DNA of 64,000 nt, taken from positions 1,600,001 to 1,664,000 of the forward strand of contig CAWFXA010000002.1 of the NCBI GenBank assembly GCA_963819655.1, read 5' to 3'. Under the pieces are notes generated by a model. The model ran no database searches, was not told the origin of the DNA, and worked only from the letters and a program-made list of their open reading frames with translations. Both the position numbers and the translations under genes were made by a program. This DNA is from an uncultured Chloroflexia bacterium (GTDB lineage: Bacteria > Chloroflexota > Limnocylindria > Limnocylindrales > CSP1-4). Below, piece by piece: positions 7,605-15,642 of this stretch (its first letter is position 1; each line of letters starts with the position of its first letter).

Positions 7605-7696
7605 GGAGAGGTCGCATAGAGGCCTAGTGCAGCGGTTTGCTAAACCGCCATGTGGGGTAACCTGCATCGAGGGTTCGAATCCCTCCCTCTCCGCCA
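7605..7696 (+). tRNA. tRNA-Ser(GCT)
   Basis: GGAGAGG/CCTCTCC acceptor stem, anticodon arm gcggt-tt GCT aa-accgc, long variable arm, GGTTCGAATCC, CCA end. Confidence 0.96.
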
Positions 7697-8776: not shown

Positions 8777-8852
8777 GCGCCCGTAGCTCAGTGGATAGAG
8801 CGTTAGGTTGCGGACCTAAAGGTCGTGAGTTCGAGTCTCGCCGGGCGCGCCA
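8777..8852 (+). tRNA. tRNA-Arg(GCG)
   Basis: GCGCCCG/CGGGCGC acceptor stem, TAGCTCAGTGGATAGAGC D-arm, ttagg-tt GCG ga-cctaa anticodon arm (8810-8812), GTTCGAGT, CCA end. Confidence 0.94.
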
Positions 8853-8984
8853 GCACTCTATTGAAGAACGGCCGTGCGGCCGGAACGAGCACGATCTCGG
8901 ACACTCAGATCGAGCCACAGCAGGCGACGAACCCCCGGCCCGATGGATTGCAGTCGATCGGCCGGCAGGGCACGCTAGCGCGGC

Positions 8985-9956
8985 ATGGAGCCATCGGAGG
9001 AGATTCGCCGGGTCATCGAGCGATGGACGATCGCGACGGCTCGGGGTGACGATGACCCCCTCGGGCGACTCTCGACGCATCCAGGCACGCTGATGATCGG
9101 CACGGACCCGGCCGAATGGTGGCTTGGTAGGGCCGCGCATGTGATCTGGGCTCGCCAGATCCGTGAGGTCGGTCCCTTTCCGGTCCGGGCGACAGAGATC
9201 GACGCCTGGGAAGAGGGGACCGTCGGCTGGGCAGCCGTCAAGGAGTCGATCGACTGGGAAGGTCGAACCCTGGAGTCGCGCGCGACGTACGTGCTTCACC
9301 TGGAACGCGACGAGTGGAAGATCGTGCAGGTCCACTGGTCGTTCCCCACCGCGAACACGGAAACCCTCGGCCGGGCGCTCACGGTTACGCTCGACGAGCT
9401 CGAGGAGACCGTTCGACGAGAGCAGCCCGACCTCACCGCCTCGCGCGCCGTCGACGGCACGGTCACGATCGTGTTCACCGACATCGTCGACTCGACGCCC
9501 ACGCTTGCGCGGCTCGGTGACGCGGCCTGGCTGGCGATCGTCCAACGCCACAACCAGCTGATCAGCGATGTCACCGCGGCCCATGACGGCGCCGTCGTCG
9601 AGACGCAGGGCGATGGGTCGATGCTCGCCTTCGCGAGCGCTCGCCGCGCGGTCGTGTGCGCGCAGGCCATCCAGCAGGAGATCGCGCGAGCCTTCGCCGA
9701 CCACTCGCCGCCGATCCGCGTGCGGATCGGGATCCACACCGGCGATGCCATCAAGGACGCCGAGCACTTCTACGGGACCACGGTGCACTACGCCGCGCGG
9801 GTCGCGAGCCATGCCGTCGGCGGCGAGGTCCTCGTGTCCAGTGCCGTTCACCTGCTCCTGCAGAGCACTGCCGAGTTCACGTTCCTTCCCGGCCGGGACG
9901 TCGAGCTGAAGGGGATCCCGGGACAGCATCGGTTGTACGCACTCGCATCGCGCTGA
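8985..9956 (+). CDS. SnoaL/NTF2-like domain fused to a class III nucleotidyl cyclase domain
   Basis: N-terminal IGTDPAEWW...RATYVLHLERDEWKIVQVHWS; C-terminal VFTDIVDST, GDG, RIGIHTG, AARV, ELKGIPG cyclase motifs. Confidence 0.88.
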   Translation: MEPSEEIRRVIERWTIATARGDDDPLGRLSTHPGTLMIGTDPAEWWLGRAAHVIWARQIREVGPFPVRATEIDAWEEGTVGWAAVKESIDWEGRTLESRATYVLHLERDEWKIVQVHWSFPTANTETLGRALTVTLDELEETVRREQPDLTASRAVDGTVTIVFTDIVDSTPTLARLGDAAWLAIVQRHNQLISDVTAAHDGAVVETQGDGSMLAFASARRAVVCAQAIQQEIARAFADHSPPIRVRIGIHTGDAIKDAEHFYGTTVHYAARVASHAVGGEVLVSSAVHLLLQSTAEFTFLPGRDVELKGIPGQHRLYALASR

Positions 9957-10115
9957 CCGCGGCGAGCCGGGCGCGCTGATCGGACCGGCCACCGCAGTGG
10001 ACAGAGCGAGGCCGTCCTAAGGCCTGCGTCGGCGGTTCGGTCCGTCCGGGGGCGCCGCGCACTAGTTTCAGGCGGCTGCCCCCGAGTACCACGCCAGAGG
10101 GTCATCCGATTTGGT

Positions 10116-10147
10116 GGCCGTGAGTCCGGGACTCGCCGGGCGTGCCA
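10116..10147 (+). repeat. Degenerate copy of the 3' end of tRNA-Arg(GCG) (att-like scar)
   Basis: ggccgtgagtccgggactcgccgggcgtgcca vs 8821-8852 ggtcgtgagttcgagtctcgccgggcgcgcca, 27/32 identical including CCA. Confidence 0.75.
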
Positions 10148-10217
10148 TCCCCTGCTAGTCTGCGCACGACGTCGTGGCGCGCCGGGAGGGCCTACGGCGT
10201 CGACGGAGGGGGAATCC

Positions 10218-12633
10218 GTGACCCGACGCCACGCATTCGTCTACGCGTCGCTGGCAGCCACTGTGGCCGTGCTGTCTGGTCTCTTCCCGCGCTCGACAGA
10301 GGCCGCGACGACCCTCACCTTCGTGCCGGTCGCCGACGCGCAGGTCAACTCGGGGAACCCCACCGGGAACTACGGCTCCTTGGCCACGATCCGGACGCGC
10401 GAGGCGGCCGGGACTCCGAGCGACCCGACGTACCGCAGCTTCCTCACCTTCGACGTCAGCGGCGTCGGCGGTCAATCGATCACCTCGGTCACGTTGCGCC
10501 TCTATGTGACCGACGCCAGCTCGAATGGCCAGGGCATCCACCGCGTGCCGGATCCGACGTGGTCGGAATCCGCTATCACTTTCGCGAATCCGCCGACATT
10601 CGATCCGTCCGCGCTCGCGACCGCGCCCGTGCCCGCCCTGGGTGCCTACAACGATCTGCCGCTCCCCGTGACCGCCGTCGCCGGCGACGGCCGCATTTCC
10701 TTCGCACTCAAGAGCGTCGGCAACAACTCAGCGATCTTCGCGTCGCGCGAAGCCACCGCCAACCCACCGCGGCTGGTCGTCGTCACCGACGCGGCCGGAC
10801 CGACCCCGACTCCGACCCCCACACCGACGGCCACCGCGACGGCCACGGCGGGTCCCACGCCGACCCCGACCCCGACGCCCACGCCGACAGGACCGCCGAC
10901 GAGCCTCACGATCGCACCGCTGGCCGACGCCCAAGTCCACTCGCGATCACCGAGCACCAACTACGGCTCGCTCTCCTCGCTGCGGACGCGCGAGGACCCG
11001 AACACCGCCAACTCCACCTATCGCTCCTACCTGATGTTCGACGTGAATGGGTTGAGTGGACCCGTGCAATCGGTGCGTCTGCGTCTGTACGTGACCGATG
11101 CCACGAACAGCGCCCAGGGCGTCTACACGATCGGCAACACGACCTGGACCGAGGGCGGTATCACGTATCAGAATGCGCCGGCGATCGGTGGCAGCGCGCT
11201 CGCGTCCGCGACCCCTCGGACGCTTAACGCATACGTCGACATCGACCTGCCCTCCAGCGCGGTCTCCGGCAATGGCAGATATGCCTTCGCGCTCAAGAGT
11301 GCCGGAACCGACAGCCTCATCGTGGCGAGCCGAGAAGCATCCGCCAATCGACCGCAACTCGTCATCAACGGCGGATCGCCGCCACCGCCGACCACTCCCG
11401 TCGGAGCGTTCGCGACGTCACCCAGCTCGGGGAACGCTCCGCTGACCGTGGCGTTCACGGACCAGTCCACCAACGGCCCGACGGCATGGGCGTGGAACTT
11501 CGACGACCCGGGCTCGGGCAGCCAGAACACCTCGAGCCTCCGAAACCCGAGCCACACGTTCGACTTCGCCGGGGTCCTATGACGTCACGCTGACGCCGTC
11601 GAATGGCGCCGGGACCGGCACGCCGGCAACGCACACGATCACGGTAACGACGCCAGGCGGTGGCTCCGGTGACCCGGTCTTCGTCGGTGCGGGCGACATC
11701 GCCAACTGCTCGCGGACCCAGGACGAGGCGACCGCGGTCCTGCTCGACGGCATCGCGGGGACGGTCTTCACCGCCGGCGACAACGTCTACGAGAACGGGA
11801 CGGCGACAGAGTTTGCGAACTGTTATGGGCCGACGTGGGGTCGGCATAAGGGACGCACGCGGCCGGTCGTCGGGAATCACGAGTACCAGACCTCGGGCGC
11901 GACCGGCTACTACAACTACTTCGGCTCCGCCGCGGGCGACCCCTCGAAGGGCTATTACAGCTTTGACATCGGGTCATGGCACGCGATCGTGCTGAACAGC
12001 AACTGTTCGCAGGTCGGTGGGTGCGGCGCCAGCTCAGCCCAGGCGACATGGCTCCGTGCCGACCTGGTCGCCCATCCGGCCTCGTGCACGCTCGCCATCT
12101 GGCACCACCCGCGGTTCACTTCAAGCCGCAGCTCCCCGGACGGATTGACCGCCGCGTTGTGGCAGGCCCTCTACGACGCGGGGGCGGAGCTGGTCATCGG
12201 CGGCCACTACCACAACTACGAGCGGTTCGGTCCCCAGACACCCGCCGGGACCGCGGACAGCGGGTTCGGCGTCCGCGAGGTTGTCGTCGGTACGGGCGGT
12301 GTGGCCCTCGTCGGGTTCTCCGGCGGGGTCATGGCCAACAGCCTCGTGCGCAACAACGCCACCTACGGTGTTCTCAAGTTGACGCTCCATCCGACGAGCT
12401 ACGACTTCGCGTTCGTCCCGATCGCCGGCCAGTCCTTTACCGACACGGGGTCGGGAACCTGCCACGCGACACCGTCGACGAGTGCGCAGGAAGCTGCCGC
12501 GGCCGCGACCGATGTCCAGCTCCGGGCGTGGGCCCGCGACATCGCCGAGCAAACGCGTCGGGGACGGCCGTCGGACGTCCTCGCGGCCGATCTACGGGAT
12601 GCCGCCACCGGATCACGTCCGAGGTCCGACTGA
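10218..12633 (+). pseudogene. Secreted metallophosphoesterase with two DNRLRE/CBM96-like domains and a PKD domain, split by a +1 frameshift at 11571-11574
   Basis: Signal peptide, two ADAQV...RSxLxFDV...LRLYV...SRE repeats, PT linker, PKD (APLTVAFTDQS...WNFDD); removing one G from GGGG restores GSYDVTLT and continues into GAGDIA, GDNVY, GNHEY, WHHP, GHYHNYER phosphoesterase motifs ending at 12633; may be a sequencing error. Confidence 0.8.
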
Positions 12634-12662
12634 CCGAGCGGCCGACCCGTACCATGACCTCG

Positions 12663-13544
12663 ATGGAGAAGGTCGCCTTCCTGGGGCTCGGGACGATGGG
12701 CTCGGCGATGGCCGCCAACCTCGCGCGCGCCGGGTTCCCCGTCACGGCCTGGAACCGGACGCCCGGCCGCGCGCCGGAGCTCGCCGAGCTCGGGGTCGAG
12801 ATCGCGAAGTCGCCCGCCGACGCCAGCGCGGACACGCCGTTGGTCGTCATCTGCGTGTCCGACACACCAGACGTCGAAGCCGTCCTGTTCGGGGAGAACG
12901 GCGTGGCGTCCGGCGCCCGGTCCGGCACGCTCGTCATCGACTGCTCGACGATCGCGCCCTCGGGCAGCTGGGACTTCGCCGCTCGGCTGCGCGAACGCGG
13001 CCTGCGGATGGTCGACGCGCCGGTGTCGGGCGGGAGCGAGGGCGCCAAGAACGCGACCCTAACGATCTTCGTCGGCGGCGACGAGGGGGACGTCGAGCAT
13101 GCCCGTCCCGTGCTGAACGCCCTCGGGCGCACGATCACGCACGTCGGGCCGATCGGTGCCGGCCAGGCGGTCAAGGCCGTGAACCAGGTCATCCTGGCCG
13201 GGACGTATCTGGGCGTCGCCGAAGGACTGGTGCTCGCCATCAAGGCCGGTCTCGACGTGGAGCAGGTCGTGGCCGCCCTCGGCGGTGGCGCCGCCCAGAG
13301 CTGGGTCCTAGCCAACCGAAGTGAGCGGATGATCGAAAACGACTACCCGCTCGGTTTCAAGGTGGCGCTTCATCGCAAGGACCTCGGGATCGCCCTGGAT
13401 CTCGCCGGGCAGCTGGGCGCGGTCCTCCCGGTCAGCGCTCTCGCCGCCCAGATCGAGAACGGGCTCATCGCCAACGGCCACGGCGACGAGGACATGTCCG
13501 CGCTCGCGCGCGCGATCCGCCGGTTGTCGGGCCTCGACGGCTGA
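12663..13544 (+). CDS. NAD(P)-dependent oxidoreductase, 3-hydroxyisobutyrate dehydrogenase / tartronate semialdehyde reductase family
   Basis: FLGLGTMGSAMA, DAPVSGG, GQAVKAVNQ, HRKDL motifs; TACCAT 7 nt upstream of ATG 12663 (alternative start 12654). Confidence 0.9.
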   Translation: MEKVAFLGLGTMGSAMAANLARAGFPVTAWNRTPGRAPELAELGVEIAKSPADASADTPLVVICVSDTPDVEAVLFGENGVASGARSGTLVIDCSTIAPSGSWDFAARLRERGLRMVDAPVSGGSEGAKNATLTIFVGGDEGDVEHARPVLNALGRTITHVGPIGAGQAVKAVNQVILAGTYLGVAEGLVLAIKAGLDVEQVVAALGGGAAQSWVLANRSERMIENDYPLGFKVALHRKDLGIALDLAGQLGAVLPVSALAAQIENGLIANGHGDEDMSALARAIRRLSGLDG

Positions 13545-13566
13545 TCCCGACGCGCCGAAGCGGGCT

Positions 13567-14751
13567 CTAGTCGAGGCCGACCAGCAACATCGGATCCCCG
13601 AGCTTGCCCTCGTACCGCGGGCGGAAGCGCTTCGCGTTGTACATGACGGGGACATCGACCTTGCGCGGACCGAGGGCGGGGTCGGGCAGGGCGGTGTGGG
13701 CGTACTTGCCGTCCTGGATCGCGACCATCCGCCCGGTGATCCCGCTGTGGATCAGGTCCATCGCTACATTGGCGAACGTGGTCGCGACCATCGAATCGAT
13801 CGAGTCGGGCTCACCCGAGCGCAGGTCGTAGGTCAGCTCCGAGGCGAGCGTCTCGATGCCGGTCCGGGCCCGCAGCTCGTACGCGAGGGCCTCACCGACG
13901 TTGGCCTTGTGGCGATGCCCGAAGGCGTCGGCCTCGCCGACATCGCTCACCTTGGCGCCCTTCCAGATGGCGCCCTCGGCGGTAATCACGAACGCGTAGT
14001 GGCTGGGGTTGGCGGCGTGGTCGGCCGCCAGGAGAGCCGCCAGCGCGTCGAGGTCGTACGGCGCCTCGGGGATCACGCAGCGCGCCGAGGTCACGTACGC
14101 GGTGTACAGCGCCGAGAACCCGGCATCCCGCCCGAAGATCCGGAACACGCCGATCCGCTCGTGCGACCCGAGCGTCGTCCGCTGACGGTTGATGGCCTCC
14201 TTGGCGCGCGTGATCGCGGTCGAGAACCCGATGCAGTACTCCGTCCCCTGCACGTCGTTGTCCATCGTCTTGGGGATGGCCACGAGCGGGATGCCGGCAT
14301 CCGCCAGGACCTGCGAGTAGGACAGCGTGTCGTCGCCCCCGATCGTGACGAGGACATCGATGCCAAGGGCCGCGATGTGGTCGAGCACGAGCGGGGTCAG
14401 GTCGTAGATGTCCGTGCCGACGGCCAATTTCTCCCGATCGGACTCGGGCAGCCAGGCGGGCAGTGCCTTCGATGGCATCTTGCGCGGGTTTGTCCGCGAG
14501 GTATGGAGGATGGTCCCGCCGGTGCGCTCGATCGTCCTCGTGTTGATCCGGTCCAGCGGCCGCAGGTACCCCGTGCCGCCGCCGTCGGGCAGATCCGGCT
14601 GGACATGGGTGAGGCCCTCCCAGCCGCGCCGCAGGCCGAGGACGTCGTAGCCGGCCTCGGTCGCCCGGTAGACGACGCTCTTGATGACCGCGTTGAGCCC
14701 CGGCACGTCGCCGCCGCCGGTGAGGACCGCGATGCGTGTGGGGGTCGACAT
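13567..14751 (-). CDS. pfkA: 6-phosphofructokinase family protein, probably PPi-dependent
   Basis: TGGGDVPGLNA, GGTILHTSR, GGDD and PKTMDND motifs; the Asp and Lys at the two specificity positions are typical of PPi-PFKs. Confidence 0.88.
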   Translation of the reverse strand: MSTPTRIAVLTGGGDVPGLNAVIKSVVYRATEAGYDVLGLRRGWEGLTHVQPDLPDGGGTGYLRPLDRINTRTIERTGGTILHTSRTNPRKMPSKALPAWLPESDREKLAVGTDIYDLTPLVLDHIAALGIDVLVTIGGDDTLSYSQVLADAGIPLVAIPKTMDNDVQGTEYCIGFSTAITRAKEAINRQRTTLGSHERIGVFRIFGRDAGFSALYTAYVTSARCVIPEAPYDLDALAALLAADHAANPSHYAFVITAEGAIWKGAKVSDVGEADAFGHRHKANVGEALAYELRARTGIETLASELTYDLRSGEPDSIDSMVATTFANVAMDLIHSGITGRMVAIQDGKYAHTALPDPALGPRKVDVPVMYNAKRFRPRYEGKLGDPMLLVGLD

Positions 14752-14845
14752 GCCGTGGGGAATCCTAGCGTCTTGGTCTCGACGAGGCTGTTGCGGTTCG
14801 GTTGCGGGGGGTTGGGCGCAAACGGGCGTCTGCTAGCATCGCCAC

Positions 14846-15286
14846 ATGAACTACGAGCTGTTCATGGGCGAGGCGCTCGCGGAGGCACAGCTCGCTGTCG
14901 GGCGTGGTGAGCGGCCGATCGCGGCCGTCGCCGTCGTGGACGAGGCGATGGTCGCGCGCGCCCATGACCGAGTCGAGCAGGCCGACGACCCGACCGCTCA
15001 CGCCGTGGTCGTCGCGCTCCGTGATGCCGCGCGTCGGCTCGGTCGGGGACGGCTCGCTGACGCCACGATCTTCACCACCGAGGAGCCGTGCGCGATGTGT
15101 GTCGGCGCGCTCCTGGAGAGCGATGTCGAAGCGCTCGTGTACGCGGTCCCGAACACCCGGGACGGGGCTGCCGGGACCGTCGTCCAGCTCGCCCAGCATG
15201 CTTCGTTGCCGCGCCGGATCAAGGTCGTGAGCGGCATCCGTCGCGACGAGGTCGAGGCGCTCTTCGCCGCCAGTCCGACCGTCTAG
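14846..15286 (+). CDS. tadA: TadA (tRNA adenosine deaminase) homolog lacking the catalytic Glu
   Basis: DPTAHAV (normally DPTAHAE), EPCAMC and GAAG motifs; lies upstream of SRP RNA-dnaX-ybaB-recR as in the Bacillus tadA locus. Confidence 0.85.
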   Translation: MNYELFMGEALAEAQLAVGRGERPIAAVAVVDEAMVARAHDRVEQADDPTAHAVVVALRDAARRLGRGRLADATIFTTEEPCAMCVGALLESDVEALVYAVPNTRDGAAGTVVQLAQHASLPRRIKVVSGIRRDEVEALFAASPTV

Positions 15287-15359: not shown

Positions 15360-15445
<86 letters not shown>

Positions 15446-15554: not shown

Positions 15555-15642
15555 GGAGAGGTCGCCTAGTGGACTATGGCGCCGCACTGGAAATGCGGTT
15601 CGGGGCAACCCGTCGCGGGTTCGAATCCCGCCCTCTCCGCCA
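15555..15642 (+). tRNA. tRNA-Ser(GGA)
   Basis: GGAGAGG acceptor, ccgca-ct GGA aa-tgcgg, variable arm, GGTTCGAATCC, CCA end. Confidence 0.95.

Follow-up and report, generated by a model that had tools for sequence, protein, structure and literature searches.

The eukaryotic deaminase subunit ADAT3 (Tad3) and the bacteria that read the arginine CGN codons without inosine are the described systems that come closest to the locus studied here. ADAT3 acts only as a heterodimer with the active ADAT2, carries a large N-terminal tRNA-binding domain and serves the formation of inosine at tRNA position 34 (I34), and in Tad3 the catalytic glutamate (Glu) is replaced by valine (Val). The lack of this Glu in Tad3 is reported by Iyer et al. 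(2011, PMC3239186), and a bacterial Glu-less TadA is not mentioned in the available part of that article. With regard to decoding, Yokobori et al. (2013, PMC3711424) describe for Mollicutes that tadA was lost and that the arginine anticodon changed from ACG to GCG once tRNA-Arg(UCG) existed; weakened tadA alleles came before the loss, and the available part of the paper describes no conserved Glu-less allele. All sequenced Thermotogae and Spirochaetes have GCG instead of ACG (PMC8007984), and the loss of inosine in Spirochaetes is listed as unexplained by Diwan & Agashe (2018, PMC6063277). Here we report on a stretch of 64,000 nucleotides (hereafter the window) from an uncultured Chloroflexota bacterium of soil, which contains a tRNA-Arg(GCG) gene and a tadA-like gene that codes for Val in place of the catalytic Glu. 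As in Mollicutes (PMC3711424) and in Thermotogae and Spirochaetes (PMC8007984), tRNA-Arg(GCG) and tRNA-Arg(UCG) replace tRNA-Arg(ICG), but whereas tadA has been lost in those groups as described, the Limnocylindria appear to have retained an orthologue that is dead and nevertheless conserved.

Both loci, which the original prediction had combined into a coupled rewiring of arginine decoding, proved to be real. The tRNA-Arg(GCG) gene is located at 8777..8852 on the plus strand, where it was found by ARAGORN as well as by direct reading of the sequence, which gives an anticodon arm with the stem TTAGG/CCTAA and the 7-nt loop TT-GCG-GA. With G at position 34 (G34) it reads CGC and CGU without inosine, and it is the sole CGN tRNA with a purine at position 34 in the genome of the window, G000 (G, C, L and f numbers denote genomes, contigs, loci and families in the comparative samples). 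Its identity is 93–100% within the genus and 96% to family f2. The tadA-like gene is located at 14846..15286, also on the plus strand, and codes for a protein of 146 amino acids with a TadA fold. Its motif DPTAH52-A-V54 (HAV) stands where the superfamily has H(C)AE, with Val54 in the place of the catalytic Glu, while E80-P-C82-A-M-C85 is intact. All three zinc ligands (H52, C82 and C85) have been retained.

The G000 assembly (3.49 Mb in 3 contigs, 69% G+C, 91% complete) is placed in family f1, genus g1 (Ca. Limnocylindria, Chloroflexota), which bears out the phylum to which the DNA had been assigned. It contains 50 tRNA genes, among them an arginine set of GCG, UCG, CCG, UCU and CCU, each present as a single gene. 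No ACG tRNA and no other tRNA with A34 was found among the 50 tRNA genes of this 91%-complete assembly, and a profile search of the same assembly detected no second TadA and only two other genes with a deaminase fold. One of these is yeast-type cytosine-deaminase-like, and the other joins a guanine-deaminase-like domain to a VOC domain; HGE is present in each of them, and their scores with the TadA model are 62.9 and 48.4 bits. As assembled, G000 has neither the TadA substrate nor an active TadA-type enzyme, and the claim that the two loci point the same way holds for the genome as a whole, with no ACG or other A34 tRNA and no TadA-type gene reading HAE. Arginine codon use, counted in 1561 long open reading frames (ORFs) with high G+C at third codon positions (GC3), was CGC 42.9%, CGG 31.5%, CGA 10.8%, CGU 9.5%, AGG 4.2% and AGA 1.1%. 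By standard wobble rules the GCG, UCG and CCG tRNAs would cover the CGN box, tRNA-Arg(GCG) reading CGC and CGU, tRNA-Arg(UCG) reading CGA and tRNA-Arg(CCG) reading CGG. The cytosine-deaminase-like gene (G000:C2:1232368-1232679, minus strand; HGE, SPCDMC) has a conserved C-terminal part that runs on in another frame, due to either a frameshift or an assembly error. Two further ARAGORN calls in G000 are an unusual 'tRNA-???' of 95 nt, whose anticodon consists of two bases, and a tRNA-Sec (C2:1366936-1367030 and C2:1010835-1010931, respectively).

The co-occurrence of codon 54 and the arginine anticodon was determined in 101 genomes of the class (at least 80% complete) by combining the TadA hidden Markov model (HMM) with patterns for purine-34 CGN anticodons and for codon 54. 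The 30 genomes of f1, including G000, had V in 25 cases and I in one at codon 54 (unclear or none in four), with GCG in 28 and ACG in none. Similar counts were obtained for f4, which belongs to the same class but to a different order from the window: its 33 genomes had V in 29, L in two and no codon in two, with GCG in 31 and no ACG. Family f3 (33 genomes) showed E in 28, one HMM match that was left unread and none in four, with ACG in 27, GCG in two and no tRNA match in four; the single f5 genome has E and no tRNA matching the pattern. All four genomes of f2, a family of the same order as G000 with streamlined genomes of about 1.1 Mb, have GCG, and TadA is missing from them (0/28 in the order sample at E 1e-10). 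The association of HAE with ACG and of HAV with GCG, which had been proposed as a check, was observed without a single mixed genome: E was combined with ACG in 25 genomes (including the unpublished G184 and G206) and V, I or L with GCG in 56, and neither E with GCG nor V with ACG was seen. The assumption that the lineage has no A34 tRNA agrees with these counts as well, as there is none in G000, and the f1, f2 and f4 genomes among the 101 yielded no ACG. The second arginine tRNA of the GCG-type set, tRNA-Arg(UCG), is already present in f3.

Two f3 genomes, G142 (97% complete) and G174 (86%), have GCG and are among the four f3 genomes without TadA; their best TadA-HMM matches (47 and 41 bits) are RibD-like. 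The GCG tRNAs at G142:C26:58188 and G174:C21:4132 (L225, L229) have the f3-type acceptor stem GACCCCG, and that of G142 adjoins tRNA-Arg(UCG), as the ACG tRNA does in the congener G182. Contamination as the source of these two tRNAs was rejected on account of the acceptor stem and of the UCG neighbour in G142. The ancestral tadA site of G142 (C26:92000-97600, L237) holds about 4.3 kb of ABC-transporter-like genes and no tadA remnant. Judged from these sequences, G142 and G174 are independent switches from ACG to GCG that were followed by loss of tadA. In f2, the interval from tRNA-Arg(GCG) to tRNA-Ser(CGA) holds a dehydrogenase and a PPOX-like gene and no tadA.

Moreover, G34 decoding of CGN is widespread in the phylum. 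In 401 Chloroflexota genomes of at least 85% completeness (the unpublished G241, G351, G435 and G498 counted in), a strict GCG pattern was found in 271 genomes and in 137 of 213 genera. The TadA HMM matched 100 of the 401 at E 1e-18. Thirty-nine of these matches are the f1 and f4 genes (92–128 bits), and 38 others scored 135–201 bits (f9 17/18, f19 7/8, f28 5/5, and f56, f62, f72, f26 and f3); a GCG-pattern match was found in none of these 38 genomes. The remaining matches scored 69–92 bits and mostly covered the first two thirds of the model. In the large GCG families a TadA-type match was absent (f15 0/25, f21 0/10, f22 0/26, f18 0/8), and f11 gave a match in 1 of 25 genomes, which is of the weak class (72 bits) and was left unread. 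A strict ACG pattern matched 8 of the 401 genomes, but since the D-arm variants found in most TadA-positive families escape it, this figure is not a count of ACG tRNAs; a relaxed anticodon-arm pattern found ACG in five of five TadA-positive genomes (f9, f19, f56 and f62). We also considered that other GCG Chloroflexota might have a dead or divergent TadA, and rejected it: six of the approximately 20 matches of 69–92 bits outside f1 and f4 were read (G396, G529, G333, G286, G478 and G285), and all are HAE paralogues of other deaminase subfamilies. The share of GCG genomes and the distribution of TadA together indicate that inosine-free G34 decoding of CGN is the common state of Chloroflexota, and tadA loss as in Mollicutes, Thermotogae and Spirochaetes is also seen in f2, G142, G174 and other sampled GCG families. 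The coupling is real, but the change in decoding is ordinary and already described; the proposal that it constitutes an undescribed system is not supported, as it is in print for Thermotogae, Spirochaetes and Mollicutes and is the majority state of the phylum (271/401). What seems peculiar to the Limnocylindria families f1 and f4, within this sample, is the retained Glu-less orthologue.

At the protein level, the closest relative in all searches was canonical TadA. The tadA-like protein matched the Pfam families MafB19-deam (84.9 bits) and dCMP_cyt_deam_1 (73.6 bits), and reached 107.9 bits with the NCBIfam TadA family NF008113, which is under the equivalog cut-off of 150 bits, with the next families below 23 bits; that cut-off was reached by 0 of 121 genomes of the order, and active TadAs elsewhere in the phylum score 135–201 bits. 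Its AlphaFold2 model has a mean predicted local distance difference test (pLDDT) value of 96.9, and Foldseek superposed it on the TadA structures 7cph, 2b3j and 1z3a with a template modelling (TM) score of 0.94 and a root-mean-square deviation of 0.8–1.1 Å over about 140 residues. The best structural matches were the TadAs of B. subtilis, S. aureus and E. coli and other TadAs, with 33–38% identity. The best sequence matches in the PDB were likewise TadAs (E 1e-23 to 1e-27), ADAT3 following at E 1e-11, and ADAT3 chains were detectable as matches in both sequence and fold. The proteins without Glu carry the same name as the active enzyme in the source pipelines, 'tRNA(adenine34) deaminase' (cluster of P0021 and relatives).

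An alignment of 96 unique sequences of the Val clade with 8 Glu-bearing proteins (seven from f3 and f5 and the HAE copy of G173) shows which parts of the enzyme have been kept. Among the 96 sequences there is no variation at the zinc-binding residues H52, C82 and C85, and the two groups have the zinc ligands, DPTAHA, EPCxMC and G107 in common. From the Glu-bearing proteins to the Val clade the changes are E54V (98%), N41D (78%; N in a further 12%), V23R, Y76F, A86V and D103N (75%), a variable K105, N122 and H123 to P/G and R, and loss of the C-terminal Phe-Phe, while E54, N41, D103, K105, N122, H123 and the C-terminal Phe pair are fixed in the eight HAE sister proteins. The window protein has N103, R105 and P122 and lacks the C-terminal Phe; across the Val clade these positions are N in 75%, variable, P/G/A/R and variable, respectively. 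The clade also has invariant residues of its own, namely Y3, E4, A29, A34 and F76. The alignment to 2b3j is gap-free, and we take positions 103, 105 and 122 to be S. aureus D104, K106 and N123, the offset being fixed by the zinc ligands. D103N is presumably the equivalent of E. coli D108N, the mutation with which the development of the DNA-editing TadA variants began. In the S. aureus enzyme, a hydrogen bond links D104 to the U33 ribose, and the C32-A38 pair is in contact with K106 and N123 (Yokobori et al. 2013, PMC3711424); the conserved C-terminal Phe of TadA corresponds to E. coli F149 (PMC3711424). The sequence thus indicates that the catalytic residue and several contacts to the anticodon loop are gone from the tadA-like protein.

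The protein probably still forms a homodimer. A homodimer model scored 0.85 against 0.00 for the best of three controls, with at least 96% of the contacts shared between runs and pLDDT of at least 92; of 30 proteins that were solved as pairs, 20 attained the mark applied, compared with one of 23 solved as single chains. It should be underlined that this model may reflect memory or likeness, because TadA dimers are among the solved structures. Compared with bacterial TadA (NF008113; 1Z3A, 2B3J, 7CPH), the window protein thus has the same fold, zinc ligands, DPTAHA and EPCxMC motifs, length class, tRNA-Ser neighbourhood and modelled homodimer. It differs in having Val for Glu, in not keeping the residues matching D104, K106 and N123 or the C-terminal Phe, in its score (108 bits against the 150-bit cut-off), and in that the substrate tRNA-Arg(ACG) is missing from G000.

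Orthologues of the gene were found in 21 of the 24 other genomes of the genus. All 20 full or near-full ones read HAV, and three long-read metagenome-assembled genomes (MAGs) show frameshift-like breaks. All 79 named loci read H-[AP]-[VI], a set that is biased because one of the six scan patterns contained HAV. A HMMER search of 1.84 billion representatives was unbiased by motif, and among its best 150 matches 51 had V, essentially those of at least about 50% identity (exception P0050, 42%), and 83 had E, all of at most 56% identity and nearly all below 48%. Four metagenomic singletons of about 42–54% identity also lack the Glu: P0050 reads HAV with canonical EVPVGAV, P0125 HPI, P0078 HAA with the first zinc Cys replaced, and P0085 HAP. 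From these, Glu-less TadA-like proteins may exist in other lineages too. The reading frame is intact in 109 extracted tadA-like genes from two families that are about 40–45% apart in protein sequence. Rough ratios of nonsynonymous to synonymous change (dN/dS, NG86) had medians of 0.14–0.31 across dS bins in the Val clade (4559 pairs), with 0.22–0.31 in the three well-populated bins, compared with 0.24–0.38 in the Glu (HAE) sister clade (28 pairs).

In a maximum-likelihood tree of 60 rows with midpoint root (the G351 locus left out), the Val clade formed one group (24/24 rows, support 100/100) on a long stem (0.74+0.19), within which f4 (99/96) and f1 (97/89) were separated. We read this as one old event of Glu loss and a burst of change, followed by vertical descent. 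In the window, ARAGORN places tRNA-Ser(CGA) at 15360..15445 (plus strand), 74 nt downstream of the tadA-like stop codon, and tRNA-Ser(GGA), the second downstream tRNA of the conserved block, at 15555..15642 (plus strand). In nearly all of the 78 tRNA-bearing loci, tRNA-Ser(CGA), usually followed by tRNA-Ser(GGA), lies within a few hundred bases 3' of the tadA-like gene, and in f5 it is the active HAE tadA that stands in this position, directly upstream of tRNA-Ser(CGA). This shared site upstream of tRNA-Ser(CGA) and tRNA-Ser(GGA), and a monophyly that mirrors the split of f1 and f4, identify the tadA-like gene, as far as sequence comparison goes, as a descendant (orthologue) of tadA. A tRNA-Ser(GCU) gene (ARAGORN, 7605..7696, plus strand) is the conserved upstream neighbour of tRNA-Arg(GCG), and this pair flanks the tadA-like gene in 48 of the 79 loci of named relatives. 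Between tRNA-Arg(GCG) and the tadA-like gene the window holds unrelated genes, coding for a SnoaL-adenylate cyclase, a CBM96 protein, a 3-hydroxyisobutyrate-dehydrogenase-like protein and, on the opposite strand, a phosphofructokinase (pfk); an rRNA operon spacer with tRNA-Ile GAU and tRNA-Ala UGC is found further downstream of tRNA-Ser(GGA).

The region upstream of the gene contains a putative extended -10-like box, TGCTAGCAT, at 14831..14839 on the plus strand, in which TAGCAT (14834-14839) follows directly after TGC and ends 6 nt before the ATG. Most orthologues have either TGcTAGCAT or TGTATGAT with this same spacing to the start codon, and of 96 unique upstream regions, 89 contain TANNNT within -25..-1. 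From its placement the box is a candidate promoter for a leaderless mRNA. A two-hexamer sigma-70 scan around the ORF gave no match, and the argument for a promoter is the comparative conservation alone; a scan for terminators found no terminator-like site between the tadA-like gene and the downstream tRNA-Ser genes. The 94-nt gap that separates the divergent pfk and tadA-like genes contains two -10-like boxes (14761-14769 and 14830-14839), TAGGAT (minus strand) about 10 nt from the pfk ATG and TAGCAT 6 nt from that of the tadA-like gene, and leaderless transcripts may be common here. The original prediction that a TadA homologue has lost its catalytic Glu yet keeps its fold, frame, zinc ligands and promoter-like box is confirmed on all these points, the box being conserved. 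In a rhizosphere metatranscriptome, a 359-nt contig covers 14845-15203 with 10 differences, and the eight that were listed all fall on third codon positions, which hints at expression in a close relative. The RNA runs contained only 8–11% of the sampled words, all of them in contigs, from which no transcript start, strand or level is readable, and uncovered parts are uninformative.

We consider it likely that I34 decoding is absent and that this tadA orthologue, catalytically dead, has been retained because it serves a non-catalytic role. The replacement of Glu by Val and of several residues that hold the anticodon loop suggests that the protein cannot deaminate adenosine, and purifying selection, a signature of its own and its own promoter-like box argue for a neofunctionalised pseudo-enzyme. 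The course of events may have been that tRNA-Arg(UCG) was present before the switch, and that A34 changed to G34 in the single-copy tRNA-Arg gene, making TadA redundant. On the stem branch, in the ancestor shared by f1 and f4, the protein would have lost its Glu and changed the surface that contacts RNA, after which a new constraint would have set in on the Glu-less protein; lineages without a new role (f2, G142, G174 and apparently most of the phylum) would have deleted tadA. As for the role itself, our guess is RNA/nucleic-acid or nucleotide binding by the zinc-containing homodimer. More specifically, and only tentatively, a free-standing pseudo-deaminase might have been re-purposed as a non-catalytic RNA binder, e.g. 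as a zinc-pocket reader or chaperone of an anticodon loop, either in tRNA-Arg(GCG) or in the serine tRNAs encoded next to it. Of the two fates that had been offered for the gene, repurposing and ongoing loss, the comparison of sequences leads us to prefer the former.

Ongoing loss was weighed in the form of a decaying relic, whose DNA would survive as the promoter or 5' part of the downstream tRNA-Ser transcription unit. The tRNA-Ser(CGA) and tRNA-Ser(GGA) genes do lie about 50–300 nt downstream on the same strand in nearly all loci with no terminator-like site in between, a few copies in long-read MAGs (G007, G022) are frameshifted, and the gene is dispensable in f2, G142 and G174. However, dN/dS values of 0.14–0.31 across dS bins, like those of active sister enzymes, invariant zinc ligands together with a conserved clade-specific signature, and a frame kept intact in 109 genes across 40–45% divergence make a relic improbable, as do the listed differences to the relative's RNA-library contig, which are all third-position. 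Lineages without need of the gene have deleted it cleanly and kept the tRNA-Ser genes. The idea that the lineage is midway through losing TadA was not supported, since both families conserve the gene, with dN/dS values in the low range of the active sister enzymes, while the true losers show clean deletions.

Alternatively, the protein might still be an enzyme, i.e. a deaminase or zinc hydrolase with another proton shuttle (e.g. Asp at Asn41) and a new substrate. Conservation is complete at the zinc site and in the DPTAHA and GAAG loops around it, Asn41 has become Asp in most of the Val clade, and the pocket is kept in a confident model. However, it is established for this superfamily that all characterised members shuttle protons with the Glu of H(C)xE. 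Asp41 is not invariant, a hydrophobic residue (V, I or L) invariably occupies position 54, and the modelled dimer interface accounts for much of the conserved surface, so that we regard such an enzyme as very improbable; loss of the Glu is also what marks Tad3 as the inactive subunit (PMC3239186). The same likeness raises the question of whether the protein is an ADAT3-like non-catalytic subunit paired with an active deaminase paralogue. It shares with ADAT3/Tad3 the TadA-derived domain, the kept zinc site and the lost HxE Glu (PMC3239186), ADAT3 chains match it in sequence and fold, and an additional deaminase reading HAE occurs in some f1 and f4 genomes, the MAG G173 even having both HAV and HAE genes of TadA type. 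Against this, G000 lacks both a TadA-type HAE gene and an A34 tRNA that could be edited, the 146-residue protein consists of the deaminase domain only, without an ADAT3-type N-terminal domain, and the additional HAE paralogues are found in a minority of genomes; the two that were read in f1 and f4 look guanine-deaminase-like, cover the first two thirds of the TadA model only and have no counterpart in G000. The HAE copy of G173, finally, is on a short contig, groups with f3 and f5 and may be contamination. A partnership of this kind is thus highly unlikely, and of the parallel to ADAT3 that had been drawn, the change of residue stands whereas the active TadA-type partner and the N-terminal domain do not. 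The additional HAE deaminases (DPTAHAE; 70–85 bits on the TadA model, positions 5-114 only) were seen in G051:C141, G042:C135, G052:C1 and G043:C53 of f1 and in G149:C2, G205:C91, G199, G201 and G195 of f4.

Several points weigh against a dead orthologue with a new role and the absence of I34. Inactivity is inferred from one residue and the contact changes, and with an assembly that is 91% complete, the absences in G000 mean that a gene was not found rather than that it is proven to be missing. Related genomes are not independent, and the class table reduces to about four events: the association of HAV with GCG is essentially one ancient event, to which one loss (f2) and two independent cases of GCG with loss are added. 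G160 (f3, 89% complete) has ACG but no TadA match. The f4 MAG G173 holds a syntenic HAV copy (C56:3824-4225, L208) and a 184-bit HAE copy (C60:1472-1915, L207/L241). The contig that carries the HAE copy is 7.6 kb long and has two tRNA-Ser(CGA) genes, and as this copy groups with f3 and f5 in the tree, it may be a contaminant. Orthology rests on synteny and taxonomy, as the tree, with its long stem and midpoint root, fails to put the HAV group next to f3 and f5 in particular. The dN/dS values are rough because dS is high and partly saturated and GC3 is extreme, and the indication of expression is weak because RNA libraries may hold DNA and the contigs show no ends. Since much of the conserved DPTAH/PCxMC surface falls within the modelled dimer interface, its conservation need not mean that a ligand is bound.

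A second rewiring of decoding concerns the AUA codon. G000 has a tRNA-Ile(UAU) at C2:118098-118173, outside the window. Its CAU tRNAs number only two, an elongator Met and an initiator-like one, and it gave no match to PF01171, the PP-loop family of TilS. In genomes that are at least 90% complete, PF01171 was over the cut-off in none of 18 f1 genomes (G000 included) and none of three f2 genomes, as against 19/19 in f3, 20/20 in f4 and 1/1 in f5. A pattern search found the UAU tRNA in three of three further f1/f2 genomes and in neither of two f3/f4 genomes, which have CAU only; a CAU tRNA adjoins tilS in the one f4 and the one f3 genome tested. TilS-less bacteria with tRNA-Ile(UAU) are known, e.g. 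Mycoplasma mobile (PMC3575796). From these sequences, the order Limnocylindrales appears to have dropped lysidine decoding of AUA after its ancestors had dropped inosine.

A full-text literature search yielded no paper on a conserved inactive bacterial TadA, although supplementary tables, which were outside its scope, could hold such rows. The conserved Glu-less orthologue is a variant within a known family, and we have found no description of it. TadA is treated as a near-universal, often essential enzyme with one job, and the Limnocylindria clade is a natural experiment in which the protein seems to have been kept over tens of percent of sequence divergence after both its chemistry and its substrate had been abolished. 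This bears on other uses of the TadA scaffold and on the origin of pseudo-enzymes, and it parallels the origin of ADAT3. TadA is also the scaffold of adenine base editors, and a natural variant with an altered nucleic-acid-contact surface may interest that field. Because the Glu-less proteins are named 'tRNA(adenine34) deaminase', surveys of tadA presence and absence would wrongly score Limnocylindria as inosine users. The pattern in the phylum, with GCG where TadA is missing, ACG where it is present and two fresh switches, provides a comparative framework for the dispensability of I34. If the protein is indeed an RNA binder, it would represent a counterpart to ADAT3 in bacteria, functioning with no catalytic partner, and, together with the later loss of TilS in the same order, it would show a lineage stripping two supposedly near-universal wobble modifications stepwise.

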